NCBI GenBank assembly: GCA_035570235.1 | Contig: DATMML010000051.1 | Span: 892 to 64,891, forward strand | From: Vicinamibacteria bacterium | GTDB taxonomy: Bacteria; Acidobacteriota; Vicinamibacteria; Fen-336 | Length of the DNA stretch: 64,000 nt | Reading direction: 5' to 3' | Part shown: positions 52,236-64,000 of the stretch, in pieces | Layout: each line of letters opens with the position of its first letter | Numbering within the stretch: position 1 is the stretch's first letter | The notes under the pieces: generated by a model | Told to the model about the DNA's origin: nothing | Database searches by the model: none | What the model saw: only the letters and a program-made list of their open reading frames with translations | Translations under genes and position numbers: made by a program

Positions 52236-53603
52236 GTGGGCCATCCGGACGCAGCCGCCCGCTTCGTGGCCGACGACGCCAAGGCTCACTGGCACGACCA
52301 AGCCGTCTGGTGGATTCGCCAAAAGCGTGACCAGGCGGCGTCGGTAGTGCCCGACTGGGAGGCGCTGCGCGAGGCGGCGGCGGCGATCAAAGCCCACACC
52401 CTGTCGCGGCTTGCCCCTTACCTCGAGGAGTTCGAAGCCGAGGCGGTGGCCCTCGGCAGCAAGGTGCACTGGGCCCGGGACGCCGTCGAGCACAACGCCA
52501 TCGTCCACGGAATCCTGGCCGAGCGCCGGATCACCCGCCTGGTCAAGTCCAAGTCGATGCTCACCGAGGAGTGCCACCTGAACCCCTACCTCGAGGCCCG
52601 GGGGATTGAGGTTGTGGACACCGACCTCGGGGAGCGCATCGTGCAGCTGGCCCGGGAGCCCCCGAGCCACATTGTGATGCCGGCCATCCACAAGAAGAAG
52701 GAAGAGATCGGGGAGCTCTTTCACCAGCACCTCCACACGGAGCGGGGGGCGTCCGACCCCAAGTACCTGACGGAAGCGGCGCGCCAGCACCTCCGCCATA
52801 AGTTCCTGGAGGCGGAGGCCGGCCTCTCCGGAGTCAACTTCGCCGTCGCGGAGACGGGCGCTATCGTGGTCTGCACCAACGAGGGCAACGCCGACATGGG
52901 CACCTCTCTCCCGCCCGTGCACATCGCCTGCATGGGGGTCGAGAAGCTGGTGCCCCGTCAGCGGGACCTGGGTGTCTTTCTGCGGCTGCTGGCCCGCTCC
53001 GCTACCGGCCAGCCCCTCACCGCCTACACCACCCATTTCCACGGGCCCCGCCGGGGCGGCGAGCTGCACATCGTCATCGTGGACAACGGCCGTTCCGCGA
53101 TCCTGGGCGATCCCCTCTTCCGCCGCTCCCTCTCCTGCATCCGCTGTGGCGCCTGCATGAACACCTGCCCTGTATACCGCCGCAGCGGGGGCTACAGCTA
53201 CGGCTACACCGTGCCCGGCCCCATCGGATCGATCCTGGCCCCCATGCGCGACCCCGCCCGTTTCGCCAGCCTCCCCTTCGCCTCCAGCCTGTGCGGATCG
53301 TGCAGCGACGTCTGCCCGGTGCGGATCGACCTGCACCACGAGCTGCTCTCCCTCCGCCAAGAGATTGCCCGCCGCCGACTCCTCCCCTGGACCAAGCGGC
53401 TGGGCATGAAGGTCGCAGCCCGGATACTGGCCGAGCCATCCCTCTACCGGCTCTCCGGTTTCCTGGCCCGGCGGGTCCTTCCCGCCCTCCCGCGGGCTCT
53501 CGTCTACGCGAGCTGGAACATTTGGGGCCGGCAGCGGGAGCTCCCGCCCCTGCCCCGGGAAAGCTTCCGCACTCTCTACCGGAGGCGCCGTGGACAGTCG
53601 TGA
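52236..53603 (+). CDS. lutB: Lactate utilisation protein B (4Fe-4S, LUD domain)
   Basis: CIRCGACMNTCPVY and CGSCSDVCPV. NFAVAETGAIVVCTNEGN LUD motif. Confidence 0.85.
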   Translation: MGHPDAAARFVADDAKAHWHDQAVWWIRQKRDQAASVVPDWEALREAAAAIKAHTLSRLAPYLEEFEAEAVALGSKVHWARDAVEHNAIVHGILAERRITRLVKSKSMLTEECHLNPYLEARGIEVVDTDLGERIVQLAREPPSHIVMPAIHKKKEEIGELFHQHLHTERGASDPKYLTEAARQHLRHKFLEAEAGLSGVNFAVAETGAIVVCTNEGNADMGTSLPPVHIACMGVEKLVPRQRDLGVFLRLLARSATGQPLTAYTTHFHGPRRGGELHIVIVDNGRSAILGDPLFRRSLSCIRCGACMNTCPVYRRSGGYSYGYTVPGPIGSILAPMRDPARFASLPFASSLCGSCSDVCPVRIDLHHELLSLRQEIARRRLLPWTKRLGMKVAARILAEPSLYRLSGFLARRVLPALPRALVYASWNIWGRQRELPPLPRESFRTLYRRRRGQS

Positions 53604-54180
53604 CGCGATCCTGGCCGCGCTCCGGCGCAACGCCCCCGCCCCCGTCGAACTACCCGACCTGTCGGGGCTCGGGGCCAAGCCCGCGGACCCGGTCCGGCAG
53701 TTTGAGGAATCGCTGGCCGGCGTCGGAGGGGCCTGCCTGCGGGTTCCGGACCTCGCCGCCGCGGACGCTGCCCTGCGCGAGATTCCCTTCTACGCGGCCG
53801 CGCGCAAGGTGGTCTCGCTCGTTCCCGGGTTGGGACGGGCGGACCTCGACCTAGGGTCCATGCCCGACCCCCATGCCCTCCAGGACGTGGACGTGGCGGT
53901 CCTGCCCGGTGAGTTCGCGGTGGCCGAGAACGGGGCGGTCTGGCTCGAGGGTCGACGCCTTCACCACCGCGCCCTCTTCGTCATTACCGACCACCTCGTG
54001 TTGGTGGTGGGCGTGCGCGAGATCGTGGCCGACATGCACGAAGCCTACGCGCGGCTGGAGGGGCGGGAGCGCGCTTATGGCCTCTTCATCTCCGGCCCCT
54101 CCAAGACCGCCGACATCGAGCAGGCGCTCGTCATCGGCGCGCAGGGCGCGCGCAGCTGCACCGTCTTCCTGGTGGGCTGA
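53590..54180 (+). CDS. lutC: Lactate utilisation protein C (LUD domain)
   Basis: GTG start overlapping the lutB end. AVAENGAVWL...HLVLV... Confidence 0.8.
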   Translation: MDSRDAILAALRRNAPAPVELPDLSGLGAKPADPVRQFEESLAGVGGACLRVPDLAAADAALREIPFYAAARKVVSLVPGLGRADLDLGSMPDPHALQDVDVAVLPGEFAVAENGAVWLEGRRLHHRALFVITDHLVLVVGVREIVADMHEAYARLEGRERAYGLFISGPSKTADIEQALVIGAQGARSCTVFLVG

Positions 54181-54193
54181 CCCCCGAAGCCCC

Positions 54194-55993
54194 TCACTTA
54201 CCGGGCGCCATGGGAATGGCGCCCGTGAAGACGTAGGCCTGCAGCAAGGCGATCAGTCCAATCACCGCCGCTCCCGCGACCGAATGCCACCACACCGTCC
54301 GGAATATCGGCCCCAGCGCGTGGGCTCGCTCGTGGGGATCGTCGTAGCAGGCGGCGCAAGCCACCATGATGGACTGGGCATCGATCATCTTGCCCATGAC
54401 GCCCCCCGTGGAGTTGGTGGCCACGATCAGAACCTCGTTCAGGTGCAGTTGCTGGGCGGTGATCCGCTGGAGGCTACCGAACAGCGCGTTGGAGGCGGTG
54501 TCGGAGCCGGTGAGGAAGACGCCCAGCCAACCCAGGTAGGCGGCGAAGAAGGGGTACATCACTCCCGCGCCCGTGAAGGCAAGGCCGAGGACCGCGTCCG
54601 TGCCGGAGTAGCGCGTGAGGAACCCGAGGCCCAACACCTGGCCGATGACCAGGACCGGGACCTTCATCCGACGGGCGGTCCGGGTAACGGTCTCCTTCCA
54701 TTGGGCGGCGCTCAGCCTGAGGGCGAGGCCGGACAGGAGCGCGGCCACGAACACGCCCGTGCCCGCCGCGGACAGCCAGTTGATGGAGAAGCGTGCCGCC
54801 TCGGGCTTGGCGGTGGCGGCGACCACCGGCGGCATGCGCTGCACCAGGTTGTGCAACCACGGCATGTCCCAAACGGGCAGGGAGAGGGTGCCCGCAAACG
54901 GGGAGCCCAGGAGGGTGGTCTTGAAGGTGACGCCGGAAAAGAGGTTGTTGAGGTAGGCCTTCCAGGCCGGCATGCCCCAGATGGCACAGCACCCGATGAG
55001 GATCGCCCAGGGGAGCCAAGCGTAGGCCGTCTCCCCCGCGGTGTAGCGATACTTCGGGGAAGCATCTCCGCCCCCCGCCGCCGACACGGTCTGCGCCGCC
55101 TCCCGCTCCGACTTCAGGAGGAACCGGCTCTTGGGGTGCCAGACGAAGCGCAGGAAGAGGGCCGTGCAGACGACGGAGAAGACGCCGGAGACGACGTCCG
55201 TCATGAGGTGGGTCTCGGGCCTCCCGGAGGAGATGTACTGCATGAGAGCGAAGGATGCGCCCGAGCAGAGCGCTCCCGGCCACACCTCGAGCGCCTCTCC
55301 CCAGGTTCCCCCCTCCATCTTCACAAAAGTGGCCACGAGCCAGAAGGGGACCAGGATGGACACCCAGGGAAGCTGGTGGCCAGCCATGGTGGAGAGCGTG
55401 AGCTGATCGAGACCGCTGACCGCGGCCAAGGTCACGATGGGCGTGCCGATGGCCCCCCAGGCCACGGGGGCGGTGTTGGCGAGGAGGTTGAGCACGGCCG
55501 ACTGGAAGGGCTTGAACCCGAGGCCCACCATCACGGCCCCCGCGATGGCCACTGGGGTCCCGAAGCCCGACGTGCCCTCGATGATGGCGCCGAAGGAGAA
55601 GGCGATGAGAAGGACCTGGAGGCGCCGGTCGAACGAGATGTGAGTGATCGACTCCTTCACGATCTCGAACTTACCGGTAATGACGGTCATGGTGTAGAGG
55701 AACATGGCGGCCAGGACTATCCAGATGATTCCCAGGAAGCCCGAGAGCGTACCCAGGGCAAAGGCGGAGAAGGCGGAGGCCAGCGGCATCCCAAAGGCCA
55801 CGCAGGAGACGAGGAAGGCGGCGAGCACTCCAAAGAATGCCGCCTGGGGAGCGGCGATGCCGAGATGCCTCACCCCACCCTTGTCACGATGCGGATGCAG
55901 GGCGATGAAGTACAGCAGAACCACGATCGGAATCGCAGCCACGATGGTGGAGAGGAGGACGCTTCCCGTTGGGTTGTAGTTCTGGTGATACAT
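54194..55993 (-). CDS. lctP: L-lactate/glycolate permease (LctP family)
   Basis: 599 aa. N-terminus YNPTGSVLLSTIVAAIPIVVLLYF plus many further TM segments typical of the LctP/GlcA family. Confidence 0.9.
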   Translation of the reverse strand: MYHQNYNPTGSVLLSTIVAAIPIVVLLYFIALHPHRDKGGVRHLGIAAPQAAFFGVLAAFLVSCVAFGMPLASAFSAFALGTLSGFLGIIWIVLAAMFLYTMTVITGKFEIVKESITHISFDRRLQVLLIAFSFGAIIEGTSGFGTPVAIAGAVMVGLGFKPFQSAVLNLLANTAPVAWGAIGTPIVTLAAVSGLDQLTLSTMAGHQLPWVSILVPFWLVATFVKMEGGTWGEALEVWPGALCSGASFALMQYISSGRPETHLMTDVVSGVFSVVCTALFLRFVWHPKSRFLLKSEREAAQTVSAAGGGDASPKYRYTAGETAYAWLPWAILIGCCAIWGMPAWKAYLNNLFSGVTFKTTLLGSPFAGTLSLPVWDMPWLHNLVQRMPPVVAATAKPEAARFSINWLSAAGTGVFVAALLSGLALRLSAAQWKETVTRTARRMKVPVLVIGQVLGLGFLTRYSGTDAVLGLAFTGAGVMYPFFAAYLGWLGVFLTGSDTASNALFGSLQRITAQQLHLNEVLIVATNSTGGVMGKMIDAQSIMVACAACYDDPHERAHALGPIFRTVWWHSVAGAAVIGLIALLQAYVFTGAIPMAPGK

Positions 55994-56234
55994 AGGGCCT
56001 CAATTTGGTTTCAGGATCTCGGGGGGTTGCGTGATCAGGGTCCGTAACGGGGACGAGGGAGGGGCGCACGCGATCAGGCTGTGGTTGCGGAGGCCTGACC
56101 CGAGTGTCGGACCTGCACCCGATGAGGAGCGTGCCCACACCAGGGATCAGCCTCCGGGGAAATGGCCCAGGAAAATTCGGCGGATGATAGGCCCAGCCTG
56201 TGAAGGATGTCAACTCCGGGCTCCCGGGGGTAGT

Positions 56235-56330
56235 GGGTCTGTTTGAAGGGCCTTAATGCCCGGCGATGGAAGCGGGCGTCTCGGATCACGTCTGGACGCT
56301 GGCCGAAATCCGTGGCCTTGTTGGGCTAGG
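56235..56330 (+). mobile_element. Short remnant of the C-terminal tail of a DDE transposase
   Basis: ...LKGL(frameshift/stop)PAMEAGVSDHVWTLAEIRGLVG. I recall the ...TPAMAAG[VIL][ST]DHVWS[LI]xE[IL]... tail from IS transposases. No catalytic domain and no inverted repeats are present. Confidence 0.4.
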
Positions 56331-56367
56331 GCCTGTCGAACGCCAGTGTTCTGCTATCCTGTCCTGC

Positions 56368-56676
56368 ATGTCTCGCCCGATGCTTGGAGTGATCTGCGGC
56401 CTCGTCTACGGGGCGCTCTCTGCTGCTTCCATGATTCCGCTCAGTTTCCCTGACAAGCGGGCTGCGTTGTTGGGTGCGTTTATCAATCGCTTCTCCATTG
56501 GATGCGTAATCGGCGCGATCGCCCTGCCGTGGCCGGGATGGCTGAGCGGTTTGGTTGTCGGGGTATTGCTCAGTCTAGCAGACGCCATAATCACCAAATC
56601 CTATGCGCCCATCCTCATCCTCGGTGCCACCGGCGGCACTATCATCGGCTGGATAATCCAAAGATTCGGCCACTAA
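56368..56676 (+). CDS. Small hypothetical membrane protein (3 TM)
   Basis: MSRPMLGVICGLVYGALSAASMIPL... Its third-position G+C is clearly lower than in the flanking chromosome (att, ttt, gta, ata, caa, aga codons). Confidence 0.55.
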   Translation: MSRPMLGVICGLVYGALSAASMIPLSFPDKRAALLGAFINRFSIGCVIGAIALPWPGWLSGLVVGVLLSLADAIITKSYAPILILGATGGTIIGWIIQRFGH

Positions 56677-56849
56677 GACCCTACCCCTCGTTTGTAGGCT
56701 CTTGCTGACCAAACTGACCCCTACCCTCCCGGGCGGCTTCTTGCTTCTTCATGGGGCGGGAAGTGGAGCTTGACGCCCTCCTGACAATGGTGCTCTATTT
56801 CCAGGCCGGCCTGCCCGCAACGCTCGTCGGAAAGAACTGGGGAGGCGCC

Positions 56850-59156
56850 ATGATCCGTGAGGACATTCTCCAGAAGTTTCCCGACCTCTTCGGGACCAAG
56901 AGGATTAACGGCCGAGAGATCAACGTCGAGCAGACCATCGCCGCCATGACCCGAGAGCTGGGCCCCGGGATCGCCGCCGCTCTCAACGCGCGGCGCGCCC
57001 TGCTCCAGTCCCCCGCGCCCGCCCGCACGAAATATGCATGGCCGAAATGGCAGGACACGTTTGAAGATCCTGTGAGCAGCCAGGTCTGGACGTTCCGCCA
57101 GGTCCTCCAAGGCCTGATCGACAACATGCTCGGTCGGGAGAGCGAGTGGCGCTGGCGCCTCAACGATGAGGTGCCCATCCCGAAAGACGCCCACCCATTG
57201 ACGAATCCGGGCTTGGAGCTCACGGGGCCGTGGCATCCGCTGGACATGGCCTTCAACGCCCTGAACAGCCCTGCGCCCATGAACATGCCGGACTTTGAGG
57301 ACGCGGCACCCTCCCATTTTCAGCCCGAGGGCGCGCTCACCACCCAGGCGGTGGGCGTGTTCGCAGCCCTGCAGAACGCCAAGGAGATCTTCGAGGGCCG
57401 CTGGAACGACCGTGCGTATGAAGTCGTGAAGAGAGGCCAAAAGCGGGCCTACCGGATCAAGACGCCCCCGCAAGACTGGCCAACCCGGTTCGCTCGGCCT
57501 CCGGGCGTCCACGTGCGGTACGACCATTTGACGGTCGATGGCCAACCGGTGCCCGGCCTCATCGCCATCACCATCCTCTGGACGCTCAACTGCTTCGAGT
57601 CGCTGACCCGCGCCGGCACCGGGGTCTACTACTACATCCCCAAGATCCAAACTCCCGAGGAAGCCCTCATTGTGGAAAGGCTCTTGGCGGGGCTGGAGTC
57701 TGTGATCGGTGTGCGACCTGGCACCTTCAAGATCAAGGTTCTCTATGAGGAGGGCAATGCGGGCCGCTTCCTGCCCGTGATCGCCTGGGTCTTACGCCGC
57801 CGGCTCCTGGGAACGAATGTTGGCCGCTGGGACTACCTAGCCAGCCTCATCGAGATGTGGAAGGACGACCCGCGGGGCATCTTTCCAGATCCGCAAGCCA
57901 TCAGCATGGCCTCTCCGAACATGCTTGCCTACCAGCGGTACAACGCCTTGATGATGCTCATGGCCGGCATCAAGGAGGGCGAGCTCCGCCAGGGCGCGCC
58001 GATCGGGGGGATGGCGGCGGTCATGATCTATCAGGCGACCGATCCCTACGGCCGCTCGAGATACAACCCCCTGGCCCTGCGGGCGATGGCCATCGACAAG
58101 CTGCGAGAGCGCCTGTTGGGGCTTATGTTTGTGCCCGAGGAACCGCCTCCCACCGGCCAAACGCCCACCCTGGAGGACATTCTTGCCGCCCGCGTCAAGG
58201 GACGGCTCTACGATGCCTATCGACAGAGCTGGGTCGCGAGCCCCGAACCGGCCTACGTCGCCGCCGGCAACGAGCCTCTACGCGTCCCCTTGACCCGGCT
58301 GCAGACGATGATCGATGCCCCCCTCGAAACGGTGGAGGTGAAGGGCAAACCGGTGCCCACGGTCGCGAGCGGCCTCGGGGAGGCGGAGCGCCTCCTCCTC
58401 CAATCACGCGGCTTGTTGAACCCGCAAGCGAAAATCCTGCCCCGCGTCATCACGCGGGGCATGCTCGAAACGCCGGAAGGGCTCTTAACGCCAGAACTCT
58501 GGGACGCCATCTACGGGGCGCCGAAGGGGGACGTCACCGTTGAGCACATACAGCATGCTTTCTACATGGCCGCGAACTACGGCTTCCAGATCCTCAACGG
58601 CAACTTCGCGGCCGCGATCGATGACTACGAGCTCTCGCTGCGGTTCATGAATGACCTCGCCACGTACCGAATCGATGTGTCGTGGCTATGGACTCTCTTC
58701 CATCATCAGGCCGCCATCACCAGGGACGGCCACCTCAAGCGGCCGGCTCTCACCGAGGACGGAGTCGTACCGGCGGTGAACGCCTTCGAGATCAAGGCCG
58801 GAACCCGGTTCGGCCGGGAGTTGTTCGAGAAGTTGTGGGGCTGCCACCAGGAATGGACGCAAGCGTTCTTCGCGGAAATGGACCGCCGCGGCGATCCCGG
58901 CCGCTTTGATCGCTCAAAGGCCTCCCTGATCATGGAGATCCTGAAGCGACAGCTCCTTTCGCCCCGCTATATCCAGCACAGCGCACGGGTGCTCTTCGTG
59001 GTGGGTGAGGCGAGCAACCAGGAGCGCACGCCGATCCTGGAAGCGATCTTCGACCAGGCCCGCGAGGAGCTTGTCCGGCGCGCGTCCGCGGGCGCTCTCG
59101 GCAAGGCGGCCTTGGCCGCCCACGACTACGTGCATGACGTCTTTCCGAGCTCGTAG
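56850..59156 (+). CDS. Divergent, unusually long (768 aa) malate synthase-family protein
   Basis: RBS GGAGG then ATG 56850. Matches to malate synthase A motifs: LTGPWHP, MPDFEDAAP, RPPGVHVRYDHL, YYYIPKIQTPEEA, IKVLYEEGNAG, NVGRWDYLASLI, IGGMAAVMI, MNDLATYRIDVSWLW. Confidence 0.75.
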   Translation: MIREDILQKFPDLFGTKRINGREINVEQTIAAMTRELGPGIAAALNARRALLQSPAPARTKYAWPKWQDTFEDPVSSQVWTFRQVLQGLIDNMLGRESEWRWRLNDEVPIPKDAHPLTNPGLELTGPWHPLDMAFNALNSPAPMNMPDFEDAAPSHFQPEGALTTQAVGVFAALQNAKEIFEGRWNDRAYEVVKRGQKRAYRIKTPPQDWPTRFARPPGVHVRYDHLTVDGQPVPGLIAITILWTLNCFESLTRAGTGVYYYIPKIQTPEEALIVERLLAGLESVIGVRPGTFKIKVLYEEGNAGRFLPVIAWVLRRRLLGTNVGRWDYLASLIEMWKDDPRGIFPDPQAISMASPNMLAYQRYNALMMLMAGIKEGELRQGAPIGGMAAVMIYQATDPYGRSRYNPLALRAMAIDKLRERLLGLMFVPEEPPPTGQTPTLEDILAARVKGRLYDAYRQSWVASPEPAYVAAGNEPLRVPLTRLQTMIDAPLETVEVKGKPVPTVASGLGEAERLLLQSRGLLNPQAKILPRVITRGMLETPEGLLTPELWDAIYGAPKGDVTVEHIQHAFYMAANYGFQILNGNFAAAIDDYELSLRFMNDLATYRIDVSWLWTLFHHQAAITRDGHLKRPALTEDGVVPAVNAFEIKAGTRFGRELFEKLWGCHQEWTQAFFAEMDRRGDPGRFDRSKASLIMEILKRQLLSPRYIQHSARVLFVVGEASNQERTPILEAIFDQAREELVRRASAGALGKAALAAHDYVHDVFPSS

Positions 59157-59530
59157 GGAGTACAGCCCCCGACGCGTCCCCGCCTCTCCTTAGGACGGGG
59201 TCGTCAGACGGAAGGGCCGGGCTGTCGACCGGCGCGGGGCCACGATCCTGGCTCGATGTCCACCCGCGATGCATCCCCGCGGAGGGACGGTGGACTTCCG
59301 GACGTCCCCACGGTCAACGGACGCGGAAGGCGACTCCACGCTCCTCGGCACCCCCGCCGGTAAGCCCCCTGAGAGGGGCACGTTGTCCGGCAAACGCCAG
59401 AAGCCCAGTTGTGAAAGAGGGCCTTCGCGTACAGCACGGCCGGGCCATCAAGGCTTGGCAAGAGCGCCGGGCACGCCCGGGAGCGGCCTCGATCCAGGCG
59501 AGAGATCATGGCCGGTCGGAATTTTTCTTC

Positions 59531-59632
59531 TTGACAAAGCTCTGTCCCTTGGAGCATGGTCTGACCAGCAGACCACCAGTCCAAACGACAGCCACGGTAA
59601 CTACGTCTCGGAGAGGGAGTTACATGGCGCAC
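59531..59632 (+). promoter_or_regulatory. Promoter/operator/RBS module, copy A (TTGACA-N17-GCATGG, TGGTCTGACCA palindrome, GGAG RBS, ATG GCG CAC)
   Basis: Homologous along its full length to 63763-63872. Here the ATG (59624) opens only a 24-codon ORF. The porin gene starts 366 nt further downstream. Confidence 0.55.
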
Positions 59633-59997
59633 CAGGAAGGTCCAGGTCGGGGATGGTGCTCTCGCGGTCCCACCCGTCGTGACTTGTCGGGTCAGTAACC
59701 AAGAAGACCTGTGAGCACACCCCGACAGTGGGACCGCCGTCGGCCAGCCCCGCACGAGGCGGATCTGGGCGTTCGAGGGGACAGCGGAAGAGGACCTGCC
59801 GCCGGAGGGCGACGCTCACCACTGGGGACGCGAGCCGCTCGTCCCGCGTCGGCGCCGTGGTCGGCCACGCTCGCGCAGCTCTCCACCACCTGCATGTCCA
59901 ACCTCCTCAACCAAGTACTGTCCAGCGCCGGCACCGGACAGGATTAGGCCCGAACTCAGAGCGGAGTCAAGTTGGAAAGCCCTAAGGGGGAATAGCT

Positions 59998-61821
59998 ATG
60001 AATCTGAAGAGCAAGACAACAGCCTGCGCCTTTGTATTTGGTGCGATCGGTCTCGGAGGCGTGGCATTCGCCGAATCAGCGGCCGAAGCAAAAAAGGCCG
60101 ACACCGATGCCAAAGAAGCGGACGGCACGCAGGGCCAGGTTCAAGACCTCAGAGAGCAGATGAGTGCGATCATGTCCCGCGCTGCCTCCGCTCAGAGTAC
60201 TCAGGACGAGATCACGACGCTGAAAGCACAATTGAGCGTGATCATGGTGCGGCTTGAGGAGCTCTCCAGGCGGGAACAGGAGAAAGCGAAGCCGCCGGCC
60301 GACTCCAAGCCGCCAGCGGACTCTCCGAAGCCGGCGGCCGAAGCTGCGAAGAAGCCCGAGCCCGCTCCCGCCCCCGCCGCGAACCCGTTCAAGGGCTTCT
60401 ACGGCACCATGGATGTCTCGTTCGACGATACAACCAAGGGCATCGCAGGGATGGTCGCCACCCAATATGCGCTCGCCAATTTCCCCCCCGACCAGACCAC
60501 GCTCGTGTCCAGCGTTCACACACCTCCCGTCGGGTCGTTGGGATACATGCCGGCCCTGTCGACGAACAAGTCAAATTTCGGCTATCGCGGGGATCATTCC
60601 ATCGGCAAGGGCGAGACCAAGTTCGTCTTTCAGATCGAGGCGGCTCTCGCCATCACCGCGAGTCCGGGTCTGAACACCACATACGTCCAGCAAGCCAACG
60701 TCGTGAAGAGCGGCATCGGCTACGGCGATTCTTTTGTCGGCATATCCAACAAGGACTGGGGAGCGTTCAAGTTCGGGACGACCTACGCGCCCTACAAGAA
60801 GTCCACCGACCGACTGAATCCGTTCTCCGGCCTCCTGGGCGACTACACCGTGGTCATGGGCAACACCGGCGGCGACAACCGTGTCGAGTTTGGCACCCGT
60901 TTGGACCACTCGATCTGGTACGAGTCACCGAAGCTTGGCCCTGGGTTCTCTCTTGACGTGCTCTTTTCCCCCGGGCAGAACCGAACCGTTGACAACATCG
61001 TCCAATCCGCGGGCTCGCCCGACTGCAACGGCGGAAACGAGCCGGGCAGCGGAAACCTGCCGTTGAATTGCGACGACGGCGGGTTCAGTGACGGCTTCAG
61101 CGCGGCCCTCAAGTTCGACAATAGCGGGTTCTACGGGACGGTCGCGTACGAGCTCCATCACAACGTCAACCGCAACAGCGACGGTATCGGCTCGAACAAC
61201 TTCCAGTATCAGATCTTTGCCTTCAACAACCCGGATCTCGTCGTGAACGCCAATAACAACCCTCAGGGCTTGCCGCCCCAAGCCCTCGGCGGGTACATCA
61301 CCGACATCGGGGATGAGACCGCATTCAAGGTGGGCCTCCAGTATCGGTTCCCGTTCAAGCTGACGTTGGGGGGCATCTGGGAGCATATGCATAGAAATAT
61401 CCCTGCCTACCTGGCGTTTCAAAACGAACGAAGCCGCGACGGGGAATGGGTCGCTGCCACCCAGGAGATCGGCGAAAAAGGCAGCCTTAGCGTCGGATGG
61501 GCGCACGCGGGGAAGACGCCTGGCGATCCGGGCGGCCAGCACAACTACAACCCGCTCGTGGCGAGCCAGAGCGCGGCCGACATGTACACCGTCGCCTACA
61601 AACACAAGCTGGACAAGCAGTTCACCTTCTACCTGGACTGGGCTCTCACGGTCAACCACGGCAACGCGCATTACGACTTGGGCGCGGGCGGCCGGGGCCT
61701 GGTGACGGACTGCCATGACGGCACCAGCACCGCGTTCGTTGACTATTCCAGCAGCGGCCCCACAACTTGGGGCGGCTGTCGAATCCAGGGATTCTCGATC
61801 GGCATGAACTATCGGTTCTGA
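59998..61821 (+). CDS. Outer-membrane porin with an N-terminal coiled-coil and a Pro/Ala/Lys-rich linker
   Basis: Signal peptide ...GLGGVAFA. Heptad-like segment DLREQMSAIMSRAAS..ITTLKAQLSVIMVRLEELSRREQEKA. KPPADS tandem repeat. Beta-barrel with the Gram-negative porin pattern and terminal ...GFSIGMNYRF. Confidence 0.8.
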   Translation: MNLKSKTTACAFVFGAIGLGGVAFAESAAEAKKADTDAKEADGTQGQVQDLREQMSAIMSRAASAQSTQDEITTLKAQLSVIMVRLEELSRREQEKAKPPADSKPPADSPKPAAEAAKKPEPAPAPAANPFKGFYGTMDVSFDDTTKGIAGMVATQYALANFPPDQTTLVSSVHTPPVGSLGYMPALSTNKSNFGYRGDHSIGKGETKFVFQIEAALAITASPGLNTTYVQQANVVKSGIGYGDSFVGISNKDWGAFKFGTTYAPYKKSTDRLNPFSGLLGDYTVVMGNTGGDNRVEFGTRLDHSIWYESPKLGPGFSLDVLFSPGQNRTVDNIVQSAGSPDCNGGNEPGSGNLPLNCDDGGFSDGFSAALKFDNSGFYGTVAYELHHNVNRNSDGIGSNNFQYQIFAFNNPDLVVNANNNPQGLPPQALGGYITDIGDETAFKVGLQYRFPFKLTLGGIWEHMHRNIPAYLAFQNERSRDGEWVAATQEIGEKGSLSVGWAHAGKTPGDPGGQHNYNPLVASQSAADMYTVAYKHKLDKQFTFYLDWALTVNHGNAHYDLGAGGRGLVTDCHDGTSTAFVDYSSSGPTTWGGCRIQGFSIGMNYRF

Positions 61822-61833
61822 GACCCGAGCATT

Positions 61834-61864
61834 GCGCCGGCTGGATGTTTCGTCCAGCCGGCGC
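61834..61864 (+). terminator. Perfect 12-bp hairpin after the porin gene
   Basis: GCGCCGGCTGGA-tgtttcg-TCCAGCCGGCGC. There is no U tract, so intrinsic termination is uncertain. Confidence 0.5.
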
Positions 61865-61888
61865 GGATGATGCTCTGGTGGTTCGAGG

Positions 61889-61908
61889 GAAGGCGTTTGA
61901 AGGCGTTG
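61889..61908 (+). promoter_or_regulatory. Tandem 10-bp direct repeat GAAGGCGTTt GAAGGCGTTg upstream of the OFA transporter gene
   Basis: Read directly. The one-helical-turn spacing is typical of winged-helix response-regulator sites. Confidence 0.3.
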
Positions 61909-62066
61909 GCGGGCGGGGGCAAAAGCGGAGAAAACGGTCCGCGGAGTGGGAGCGTTGCCGCAGCCCGCTCGTGACCCTGTCGCGAGCCGTGAGCTTGCGG
62001 GCAGACCGGATGAGAAGAGCCAAGGCCCCCTTTTTGAGGCACGAAGGAGTCTAGGGAGGTGAAGAC

Positions 62067-63590
62067 ATGGCGGTCGCAGCCGCAAGCGTGACATCGTCTG
62101 AATCACGGTTCTTGAACCGCTGGCTCATCCTGTTAGCCAGCATCCTCAGCATGGTGGCCGTTGCGAACTTCCAGTACGGCTGGACACTCTTCGTGCCACC
62201 CCTTCAGAAGCACCTCGGACAAGAGCAAGCCCTCATCCAGGTCACCTTCACCGTGTTCGTGCTGCTCGAGACCTGGCTCGTCCCCTTCGAGGGTTGGCTG
62301 GTGGACAAGTTCGGACCGAGGCTCCTCGTGATGCTCGGTGGCGTCCTGGCCGGGCTCGGCTGGGTCGGCAGCGGATATGCAGAGTCGCTCACTGCTCTGT
62401 ACCTGTCCTACGCCGTCGCCGGGCTGGGCGCGGGCATCGTCTACGGCACGGCGGTCGGTAGCGCCCTCAAGTGGTTCCCCGACCACCGAGGGCTGGCGGC
62501 GGGTTTGACCGCGGCCGGCTTCGGTGCCGGCTCTGCCATGACCGTGGTACCGATCGCTAACATGATCAACACCTCCGGTTACCAAGCGGCGTTCATCGAG
62601 TGGGGCATCATCCAGGGAGCGGTGGTCGTCATCGCGGCCCTGTTCTTGCAGGCGCCGCCCGTCGGCTGGATGCCCGTGGCTTGGTCACAGGCGGCGCGGG
62701 GAGAACTGGTGAAGAAGCGCCAATCGGGGGTCGATTTCACGTCCGGGCAGATGGTCTCCACGCCCCAGTTCTGGTTGATGTACGTGATGATGACGCTCGT
62801 TGCTACCGGTGGCCTCATGGCTGTTGCGCAGCTCAACCCGATGGCGACCGACTTCAAAGTGGACAAGATCTCGGTCAGTCTCTTCTGGATCACGCTGCCG
62901 GCGCTGCAGTTCGCCCTCTCTGCGGACCGGATAGTGAACGGGCTCTGCCGCCCGTTCTGGGGGTGGGTCTCCGATCACATCGGCCGTGAGTACACCATGA
63001 CCCTAGCCTTCGGCCTGGAGGCAGTGGCCATTTTCGTGCTCATCCAGTTCGCCCATAACCCCTTGCTCTTCGTCATCTTCAGCGCTTTCACCTTCTTCGG
63101 TTGGGGCGAGATCTTCTCCCTGTTCCCGGCTATCTGCGGCGACTTCTTCGGGCGCAAGCACGCCACCGCGAACTACGGGTTCCTCTACACGGCCAAGGGC
63201 ACGGCGTCCGTCTTCGTGCCCATCGGGTCCGCCCTGGCCGCGGGTAAGGCTTTTGACTTCCGCGCGGACATCCTGCTCGTGCTGGGTGGTGTCCTGGTCC
63301 TTTTCGCGCTCTTCCTAGCTCCGTCCGTGTTCCGCCTGGAACTCGGCGGAACCGCGAAGACCGCTCTGCTGGTGGTGGCCGGCGCGCTGATCACGTATGG
63401 CCTCGTGCTCACGGTGCTCCCCAAGGTCTGGACCCCGTTTGACGCCAAGTTCACGCTGCCGAAGACCGGCTGGGCAGGTGTTTACACAGTGGCCATCGCC
63501 TTCGACGTGATCGCGGCGGTCCTCGCCTTCTTCGTCTTGCGGCGCATGAAGGTACCGGCTCCACCGGCGGGTGTCTCCGCAGCCGCCTAA
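62067..63590 (+). CDS. MFS transporter, oxalate:formate antiporter (OFA) family, with a C-terminal extension
   Basis: RBS GGAGGTG. NFQYGWTLFVPPLQKHLG, LVDKFGPR, ...CRPFWGWVSDHIGRE... are typical OFA/OxlT-like motifs. About 90 extra C-terminal residues carry more TM helices. Confidence 0.8.
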   Translation: MAVAAASVTSSESRFLNRWLILLASILSMVAVANFQYGWTLFVPPLQKHLGQEQALIQVTFTVFVLLETWLVPFEGWLVDKFGPRLLVMLGGVLAGLGWVGSGYAESLTALYLSYAVAGLGAGIVYGTAVGSALKWFPDHRGLAAGLTAAGFGAGSAMTVVPIANMINTSGYQAAFIEWGIIQGAVVVIAALFLQAPPVGWMPVAWSQAARGELVKKRQSGVDFTSGQMVSTPQFWLMYVMMTLVATGGLMAVAQLNPMATDFKVDKISVSLFWITLPALQFALSADRIVNGLCRPFWGWVSDHIGREYTMTLAFGLEAVAIFVLIQFAHNPLLFVIFSAFTFFGWGEIFSLFPAICGDFFGRKHATANYGFLYTAKGTASVFVPIGSALAAGKAFDFRADILLVLGGVLVLFALFLAPSVFRLELGGTAKTALLVVAGALITYGLVLTVLPKVWTPFDAKFTLPKTGWAGVYTVAIAFDVIAAVLAFFVLRRMKVPAPPAGVSAAA

Positions 63591-63698
63591 TGACCACCTG
63601 GCCCAAAGGCGGGGGTCATAGTGACCACCCCCGCTGGCAGCGGCAAACCGCTAGCCCCGGCTACCGACACCCTGGAGAGCAGGGTTGTGAGGCTAGGC

Positions 63699-63734
63699 TC
63701 TCCCCCCCGGCAGTGTTACCCGCCGGGGGGGAGG
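63699..63734 (+). terminator. G+C-rich 12-bp hairpin after the OFA gene
   Basis: CTCCCCCCCGGC-agtgttaccc-GCCGGGGGGGAG. No U tract. Confidence 0.45.
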
Positions 63735-63762
63735 AGAGCCGAAGTGATGTGCGAAATTGTGC

Positions 63763-63872
63763 TTGACAAGGGCCAGGTGCCGGGAGCATGGTAGTGGTCT
63801 GACCACCTGACCAGTAGCCCAGAATGGGGAGCCGCGGGAAGTTGATCTCGGGAGAGGAGTTACATGGCACAC
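63763..63872 (+). promoter_or_regulatory. Promoter/operator/RBS module, copy B (TTGACA-N17-GCATGG, TGGTCTGACCA plus a second TGACCA, GGAG RBS, ATG GCA CAC)
   Basis: TTGACA at 63763-63768, palindrome at 63795-63805, ATG at 63864. Homologous to 59531-59632 with a 6-nt indel. Confidence 0.6.
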
Positions 63873-64000
63873 TTCATCTGTGAAGTGGTGTATCGGGGCA
63901 TTTTCCAGAAGAACCTGGCCGCGCGAATCGTGCGCGGAATTGTGCTTTCGGCTCGCAAGTCCGGGAAGTGGGGCATCGCGTTCGGGCGTTATGGGGACAG
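63864..64000 (+). CDS. 5' end of a 2-oxoacid:ferredoxin oxidoreductase gamma-type subunit/domain (possible oxalate oxidoreductase); runs off the window
   Basis: MAHFICEVVYRGIFQKNLAARIVRGIVLSARKSGKWGIAFGRYGD aligns by eye with the E-I-R-x-x-G-R-G-G-Q-G...A..GK..QAF..FG..RRG start of PFOR/OFOR gamma subunits. Only 45 codons are visible. Confidence 0.5.
   Translation, partial: MAHFICEVVYRGIFQKNLAARIVRGIVLSARKSGKWGIAFGRYGD

Follow-up and report, generated by a model that had tools for sequence, protein, structure and literature searches.

The stretch of DNA analysed here, referred to below as the window, comprises 64,000 nucleotides (nt) of contig DATMML010000051.1 in the assembly of a Vicinamibacteria bacterium (GCA_035570235.1). 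It raises a simple question: why should the gene of an outer-membrane porin, followed by the gene of an oxalate/formate antiporter of the MFS superfamily, and the unrelated oxidoreductase (OFOR) operon that comes next be preceded by two similar blocks of about a hundred nucleotides? One of these blocks, copy A (59531-59632), occupies -467 to -366 counted from the porin ATG; the other, copy B (63763-63872), leads into the first OFOR gene, and both are on the forward strand. The answer that we consider likely is that both copies are sigma-70-type promoters carrying the operator of a neighbouring transcription regulator of the GntR family, FadR subfamily, and that copy A places the porin and the antiporter in the same regulon as the oxidoreductase.

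Two copies of one probable promoter-operator module

The two copies were compared by Smith-Waterman alignment of the DNA before the porin gene (59157-59997) with the DNA after the transporter gene (63591-64000). The best pair of segments, 59557-59632 and 63795-63872, has 60 identical columns out of 79 (76%, or 80% if gaps are left out), and its score of 55 is far above the scores of 500 dinucleotide-preserving shuffles (21.9 +/- 2.5, maximum 34; z = 13). The likeness noticed by eye in an earlier, sequence-only reading of this locus is thus well beyond what shuffled DNA gives. In a global alignment of the complete copies, 79 of 112 columns are identical, which amounts to 79% of the aligned positions. 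All the common blocks named in that reading are present in both copies, and the likeness ends, as had been said, just past the third codon (Met-Ala-His). The 6-nt indel is also there; it is, however, not the only one, as the global alignment contains four more single-base gaps.

The start codons are ATG 59624-59626 in copy A and ATG 63864-63866 in copy B. Copy B was rightly taken for the beginning of the OFOR gene: genes for proteins of 403, 413 and 342 amino acids (aa) come after it on locus L001, which is the window region on a 164-kb metagenome contig (ENA ERZ27253551) that reaches 9.6 kb past the window end. Copy A does open a 24-codon open reading frame (ORF), but the distance from its third codon to the porin ATG at 59998 is 365 nt, and not 366 as had been counted. 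A third copy of the module was sought with nhmmer and not found, either in the window or over the next 9.6 kb past its end.

A 17-nt direct repeat, TGTGCGAAATTGTGCTT / TGCGCGGAATTGTGCTT (88% identity), was also seen at this locus. One unit is just 5' of the -35 box of copy B (63748-63764), the other is 183 nt further on, inside the oxidoreductase coding region (63931-63947), and the pair could be due to chance.

The module in other Rokubacteria

The relatives of the first oxidoreductase gene come overwhelmingly from metagenome-assembled genomes of Rokubacteria (Methylomirabilota), a phylum that, to our knowledge, has no cultured representative. With the 403-aa OFOR protein as the query we fetched 80 species-representative loci and examined 170 nt upstream of the start. 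The view that the element is a module of promoter, operator, ribosome-binding site and ATG holds well in this set, as the same layout is found before the OFOR gene in 79 of the 80 loci: CTTGACA, a spacer of about 17-18 nt, a weak -10 box, the operator TGGTCnGACCAnCnGACCA, a variable 5' untranslated region (5'UTR), GGAGG, and ATG. The -10 boxes elsewhere read, for example, TATGGT, CATAGT or TAGTCT, and the operator is on the -10 box or just after it.

When the 79 loci are stacked by anchoring on the GGTnnnACC core, the consensus T-GGTC-N-GACCA-N-C-N-GACCA emerges, with 15 positions at 1.2-2.0 bits, and with the centre and two spacer bases free. The third GACCA, 8 nt past the second half-site, holds 1.2-1.9 bits per position. 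A TTGAC box is found 31-33 nt 5' of the operator core in 56 loci and 26-28 nt 5' of it in 6 loci. Between the core and the ATG there are 31 to 120 nt, and the 5'UTR is unconserved both in length and in sequence up to the GGAGG. An additional TGGTnnnACCA match was found only in loci L003 and L071, distant from the promoter.

The comparison of orthologous loci proposed earlier also tells which of the two copies is the unusual one. In 79 of the 80 species there is no porin and MFS gene pair within 10 kb, and the operator is single; a porin homolog within 10 kb of the OFOR gene was found in none of the other 80 loci, and a related MFS gene in one (L044), where it is located 3' of the operon. Copy B is nearer to the promoters of other species than copy A (best scores 42 and 37), and its distance between the -35 box and the operator, 33 nt, is the commonest one among the 79 loci; in copy A this distance is 27 nt, as in the minority. 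Because of the majority spacing and the closer likeness to other species, we read copy B as the orthologous OFOR promoter and copy A as its derived copy.

Anatomy of the two putative promoters

The coordinates of the elements and of the genes around them are collected in Table 1. The -35 box matches the consensus at 6 of 6 positions in both copies. Within 74 kb there are exactly two perfect operators, one in each module, and no further operator with up to 3 mismatches was found in the window. The overlap of the -10 box with the operator that distinguishes copy A is also observed in other species (for example, in loci L005, L015, L036 and L049, which read TATGGTCnGACCA). In lineage L094, one of the close relatives considered below, the position of the copy B -10 box reads CATCGT.

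Table 1. Elements of copies A and B and the genes and stem-loops associated with them (window coordinates unless a locus is named)
Feature	Position	Strand	Remarks
Copy A, -35 box TTGACA	59531..59536	+	Matches the CTTGACA box of other Rokubacteria OFOR loci; invariant in 4 lineages
Copy A, candidate -10 box CATGGT	59555..59560	+	18-nt spacer; overlaps the operator by 4 nt; proposed by analogy with TATGGT/CATAGT
Copy A, operator TGGTCTGACCAGCAGACCA	59557..59575	+	Palindrome TGGTC-N-GACCA and third half-site GACCA; exact match to consensus TGGTCnGACCAnCnGACCA
Copy A, 5'UTR	59576..59623	+	Includes ribosome-binding site GGAGAGGGAG (59610-59619); aligns with the copy B 5'UTR
Short ORF, 24 codons and stop	59624..59698	+	First three codons, Met-Ala-His, common with oorD
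Rest of leader up to the porin start	59699..59997	+	Homologous within the four cassette-bearing lineages only
Outer-membrane porin gene (607 aa)	59998..61821	+	L094 ortholog matches Pfam Porin_4
Strong stem-loop directly 3' of the porin stop codon	61823..61879	+	-42.9 kcal/mol, z = -7.6; G+C-rich, no T-run
MFS oxalate/formate antiporter gene (507 aa)	62067..63590	+	NCBIfam TIGR04259, 531.5 bits (cut-off 335); Pfam MFS_1
G+C-rich stem-loop 3' of the antiporter stop codon, before copy B	63696..63740	+	-38.5 kcal/mol, z = -2.8; terminator-like, no T-run
Copy B, -35 box TTGACA	63763..63768	+	
Copy B, candidate -10 box CATGGT	63787..63792	+	18-nt spacer; proposed by analogy with CATAGT in L069 and L074
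Copy B, operator TGGTCTGACCACCTGACCA	63795..63813	+	Invariant in 4 lineages; starts two bases after the -10 box
Copy B, 5'UTR	63814..63863	+	Includes ribosome-binding site GGGAGAGGAG (63850-63859)
First OFOR gene, 5' end (403-aa ferredoxin-domain subunit)	63864..64000	+	Runs off the window; L001 11798-13009

The palindrome has a 5-bp stem and a 1-nt loop and therefore cannot form an RNA hairpin, for which reason we read it as a protein-binding site in DNA. Its form is informative: operators of the FadR subfamily of GntR regulators consist of TKGT and ACMA boxes whose GT and AC are 3 nt apart, and an extra half-site is frequent 7-12 nt away (PMC4494728). In line with this pattern, both copies have TGGT-CNG-ACCA, as do 79 of the 80 related loci; the centre base is free, and the third half-site fits as well.

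The neighbouring GntR/FCD regulator

A candidate for the cognate protein is encoded beyond the window, 3' of the OFOR operon (L001 15517-16260). It is 247 aa long and consists of a GntR winged-helix domain (PF00392) and an FCD domain (PF07729). A homolog with 67-81% identity is found 3' of the operon in most loci that have enough downstream flank, and the ortholog in L010 was confirmed by Pfam. The best NCBIfam matches of the regulator are NanR, LldR, PdhR and GlcC, with NanR at the top (150 bits, cut-off 260); it stays below the curated cut-offs of all the named NCBIfam models and thus belongs to an uncharacterised ortholog group. In the literature, full-text searches found no paper that ties oxalate oxidoreductase to a GntR regulator, and none of relevance to oxalate metabolism in Rokubacteria.

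The position of the regulator gene differs between the lineages. In other Rokubacteria, the genes tctC, tctB and tctA of a tripartite tricarboxylate transporter and a gene of the Na/Ca-exchanger family are located between the operon and the regulator (L010 6654-11029; about 4 kb in most of L002-L081); in the lineage of the window all of these are absent from this place, and the regulator gene comes directly after the operon. This suggests that a transporter has been swapped in the window's lineage, with TctCBA going out and the porin and antiporter coming in.

A possible promoter of the regulator gene itself was noted at L001 15479-15507 (equivalent to about 67545-67573 of the window): TTGACC, 17 nt, and TACTAA, 9 nt before the GntR/FCD ATG, located after a hairpin that is 3' of the last oxidoreductase gene. 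The GntR/FCD gene may thus have its own, nearly leaderless promoter in the window's lineage. No operator was found at this candidate promoter.

The fit of the operator to the FadR pattern and the constancy of the layout make it probable that copies A and B are promoter-operator modules for this GntR/FCD regulator. The regulator would be expected to contact DNA over TGGTCTGACCA...GACCA and, when bound, to block RNA polymerase; we propose repression by occlusion, given that the operator coincides with or adjoins the -10 box and the likely start site. A small acid, probably oxalate, would bind the FCD domain and release the regulator. We infer that transcription from copy A then reads into the porin gene through a leader of about 430 nt, so that one regulator would induce uptake across both membranes together with oxidation of the substrate. 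The switching of uptake and breakdown together is probably what the second copy is for. Regulator binding, repression, the effector and the transcription start sites are all predictions made from the DNA and its translations.

Several observations count against this interpretation. The CATGGT boxes have only 3 of the 6 TATAAT positions, the boxes of other species at this place being better, and a generic sigma-70 promoter scan of 59100-64000 returned zero promoters; we attribute the empty scan to the weakness of the -10 box. The regulator and the operator co-occur almost everywhere, so that a correlation of presence and absence cannot link the two. The three OFOR proteins of 403, 413 and 342 aa have as their best NCBIfam matches the delta, alpha and beta subunits of oxalate oxidoreductase, but all score below the cut-offs of these models (85 vs 230, 387 vs 500 and 339 vs 590 bits, respectively); together with the pairing of the operon with TctCBA elsewhere, this means that the effector and the substrate may be another small carboxylate. 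The leader between copy A and the porin is long, at about 430 nt, and has conserved stretches, so that close to the porin there may be another, unrecognised promoter or a site of processing. Finally, the hairpin between the porin and antiporter genes may stop part of the transcription before it reaches the antiporter.

Four cassette-bearing lineages and selection on the copies

Four lineages combine the second module with the porin-antiporter pair: that of the window and three more from metagenomes (L082, L083/L084 and L094-L096). Among them, at four-fold degenerate sites of the porin, antiporter and oxidoreductase genes the pairwise difference is 17-31%, and 35-65% of such sites are variable among the four. 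Against this background, copy A has no variable columns out of 45 from the -35 box to the end of the operator, and 8 out of 48 in the rest of the 5'UTR. The pairwise difference over the whole of copy A is 1-7%, with binomial p from 2e-4 to 9e-8 relative to the four-fold rate; for the whole of copy B it is 5-8%.

These numbers bear directly on the possibility that copy A is a decayed, unused relic and that the porin and the antiporter use a promoter of their own, located inside the 366-nt stretch that precedes the porin gene or where this stretch ends. There are reasons to consider it: the porin ATG is far from copy A, the -10 box is weak, the peptide of the short ORF is unconserved, and separate signals could reside in the final 60 nt of the leader, which are highly conserved. 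A relic, however, should have drifted at about the four-fold rate, with 35-65% of its columns variable. In copy A the variable columns number 0 of 45 between the -35 box and the end of the operator, and 9 of 100 among those that align with copy B. Neither its ribosome-binding site nor its ATG varies in the four lineages, and no other sigma-70-like promoter was found in 59100-64000. We regard the relic as improbable. Both copies are under purifying selection, and the pattern of copy A is the one expected of a promoter-operator in use, followed by a loosely constrained leader.

The same alignments date the two copies relative to the lineages. Of the 21 positions at which A and B are mismatched, 18 are invariant among the A copies and 15 among the B copies; because most of the differences between A and B are fixed in all the lineages, the duplication predates their split, with no homogenisation, gene conversion or loss since. 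The start of the oxidoreductase gene was seen to vary in one lineage, L083/L084 (L084 5436-5460), where the protein begins with MALICEVV rather than MAHFICEVV, being one codon shorter, with an extra A before the ATG. As this start differs, the first codons common to A and B are not strictly kept in copy B.

Origin of the second copy

Whether the likeness between the two copies goes beyond the constraints of promoter, operator and ribosome-binding site can be judged from the parts where such constraints are lifted. The A-B score of 55 compares with at most 42 for either copy against the 80 other upstream regions. When the promoter, the operator and the ribosome-binding site are all taken away, what is left (59576-59609 and 63814-63849) still aligns better than all of 5000 shuffles; it also aligns better than copy B does with the equivalent stretch of 77 other species, by a small margin (-2, with -7 as the best of the others). 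The likeness of the 5'UTRs, and the collinear ribosome-binding site, ATG, GCR and CAC, argue for common descent by an old duplication, and it is quite likely that the copies are related in this way. Copy A would then be an old duplicate of the OFOR promoter, 5'UTR, ribosome-binding site and first three codons, placed about 440 bp 5' of the porin gene.

The two copies could also be scars of the arrival of the cassette, either by a Campbell-type single crossover of circular DNA that carried a related OFOR promoter fragment, or by an insertion into the 5' end of the OFOR gene with a duplication of about 105 bp. Copy A or copy B would not need to function in this scenario, which concerns origin and can coexist with a shared regulon. 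It draws on the geometry of the locus, in that the direct repeats bracket exactly the lineage-specific leader, porin and antiporter (59633-63762), and the 79 other species have neither the cassette nor a second copy. The 5'UTR of A is barely closer to B than B is to other species, as would be the case if it came from a related donor, and the region left of copy A is a hot spot of indels, including a 1.6-kb insert in L082. The bracketed segment itself, however, contains no gene for an integrase, transposase or other recombinase, only porin and MFS genes being called in it, and no terminal inverted repeats join its boundaries. Target duplications in transposition are only a few bp long, so that about 105 bp is far longer than expected. 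Scars without function, moreover, would not be expected to be under strong purifying selection in four lineages, with copy A invariant from the -35 box to the operator. A relative with an empty site, from which the event might be reconstructed, was sought through the homologs of the upstream malate-synthase-like gene and was not found among them: the homolog with 89% identity has the same architecture, and those with 81-82% are in unrelated contexts. On balance, arrival scars are a less likely reading of the two copies than a duplicated promoter-operator module, while the route of the duplication may have been either of the two proposed in the earlier reading, copying of the promoter or insertion of the cassette.

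The leader between copy A and the porin

The DNA that separates copy A from the porin ATG evolves unlike the module. In 59633-59997, 77 of 343 columns are variable among the four lineages and there are 37 gap columns; variation is almost absent from the final 60 nt in front of the porin ATG. An ORF of 19-32 codons is kept after the copy A start in the four lineages, with a frameshift in L082 and a 6-nt insertion in L094 (MAY... vs MAH...); its peptide is unconserved, and the substitutions have no codon-position bias.

Two candidate genes within the leader were considered and rejected. The idea that the leader is a decayed OFOR or other gene was examined by blastn (word size 7) and tblastx against 93 loci, which gave matches to self and orthologs and scattered short noise, none of it collinear with oorD. 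A 78-codon frame at 59711-59947 is open in several lineages, and some of its indels are multiples of 3, but the substitutions are spread over the codon positions as 13:8:13, 11:8:16 and 6:9:10, which does not suit a hidden gene.

Since the likeness between A and B spans the 5'UTR, the ribosome-binding site and the start codon, one may ask whether the shared 100 nt or so act mainly as RNA, as an oxalate-sensing leader of the riboswitch or attenuator kind, or by coupling translation of the short ORF to expression downstream. Both 5'UTRs are indeed more conserved among the lineages than four-fold sites are, and the short ORF of copy A has stayed translatable in all four. The RNA-level evidence, however, goes the other way. 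There are no Rfam matches at the gathering score in the window, and none at E <= 1 in 59400-60100. The 5'UTR folds are no more stable than those of shuffles (z = -0.56 for copy A and +1.33 for copy B), and the hairpin predicted for the 5'UTR of copy A is absent from that of copy B. For the whole leader the minimum free energy has z = +0.57, and when the alignment is folded the covariation term is unfavourable, only 1 of 125 pairs being compensatory (three sequences, hence low power). Among the 80 species it is the DNA palindrome that is conserved and not the 5'UTR, and neither the peptide nor the reading frame of the short ORF is conserved. An RNA element as the main function of the shared block is thus very improbable; the leader in particular offers no support for an RNA switch, within the limited power of three or four close sequences.

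A related notion starts from what copy A has kept of the decapitated OFOR gene, namely a ribosome-binding site, a start codon and a short ORF. With the moderately conserved leader of about 430 nt, these would constitute a new kind of translation-coupled control. Ribosomes on the short ORF would shield the leader from premature (for example, Rho-dependent) termination, which would add a second layer of control on the porin and antiporter above the GntR operator. We consider this quite unlikely.

Porin, antiporter and surrounding genes

The porin of the window has no match in Pfam or NCBIfam, Porin_4 being absent even at E <= 10, and a weak match to chitoporin in PDB (E = 0.003). Its L094 ortholog (L094 12162-13976) matches Pfam Porin_4 with E = 1.8e-20 (74.5 bits). 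The missing match of the window protein may be due to the action of the HMMER bias filter on its N-terminal 130 residues, which are Ala/Pro/Lys-rich and coiled-coil-like.

Of the two stem-loops listed in Table 1, the one after the porin (61823-61879) could be a terminator or an mRNA stabiliser; its effect may be a lower expression of the antiporter than of the porin, or a more stable porin mRNA. The other (63696-63740) may keep read-through away from copy B; having no T-run, it escaped the generic scan.

Upstream of the cassette there are a large malate-synthase-like gene, a lactate permease gene and LutABC-like genes. An island of C2/C3-acid metabolism (window 52236-59156; L094 1-11343), which also includes glycolate-oxidase-like FAD/CCG genes, surrounds the cassette. 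The gene of the malate synthase family is unusually long (about 780-800 aa), and its homologs are widespread in soil metagenomes, at 78-90% identity; judging from the lengths of the homologs and the query coverage of 96%, its true start is perhaps some 20-30 codons 3' of 56751. The DNA between this gene and copy A (window 59222-59378) varies between lineages. In L082 there is a 1.6-kb insert (L082 3755-5349) that encodes, on the minus strand, a truncated sigma-54 activator of 327 aa, with AAA+ and HTH_8 domains and without the N-terminal sensor domain.

Relation to known systems

The closest functional parallels are the operators of LldR, PdhR, GlcC and FadR in E. coli. As there, the gene of a regulator with a GntR winged-helix and an FCD domain adjoins the catabolic and transport genes that are regulated, and the boxes of the palindrome are accompanied by an extra half-site and overlap the core promoter. 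Here, however, the half-sites are G+C-rich (TGGTC/GACCA) and not A/T-flanked, and the regulator is from an uncharacterised ortholog group in an uncultured phylum; its binding, effector and sign of regulation are predictions.

As to the enzyme, the oxalate oxidoreductase cluster of Moorella thermoacetica, the source of models NF045790-NF045792, likewise has a three-subunit OFOR, which here adjoins an MFS gene of the oxalate/formate antiporter type. The differences are in the delta-like subunit, which is 403 aa long against a model length of 316; in the scores of the subunits, which are below the cut-offs, the specificity being a prediction; and in the pairing of the operon, in other Rokubacteria, with TctCBA and not with an MFS antiporter.

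Promoter capture provides the evolutionary parallel. Putative mobile promoters were described by Matus-Garcia, Nijveen and van Passel (2012), and promoter capture is known from the Cit+ E. coli of the long-term evolution experiment (PMC3575422); the criteria of such surveys are a minimum identity of 80% across 50 nt or more, non-paralogous genes, and a -150 to -50 window (PMC3575422). The present case is alike in that homologous upstream DNA precedes unrelated genes, no known mobile element is involved, and regulation is rewired. Measured by those criteria, the old and diverged pair of copies is borderline in identity, with 60 of 79 identical columns (76%; 80% without gaps), and copy A, at 366-467 nt from the porin start, is outside the -150 to -50 window, falling in it only with respect to the 24-codon ORF. 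What makes the case unusual is mainly that the duplicate carries the ribosome-binding site and the first codons of the source gene, and leaves a short upstream ORF behind.

In its kind, this is ordinary regulatory evolution, combining a FadR-type operator with promoter reuse, and not a new mechanism; no general concept is changed by it. What the locus provides is a concrete operator, TGGTCnGACCAnCnGACCA, and a promoter layout for the uncharacterised GntR/FCD regulator of an oxalate-oxidoreductase-like operon across Rokubacteria. It would also be a natural case of a regulon that has grown by copying a whole block of promoter, operator and leader, and not by the emergence of a binding site de novo. 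As such, it should be useful for the annotation of oxalate and C2-acid metabolism in soil metagenomes, and may serve as an example of promoter reuse.

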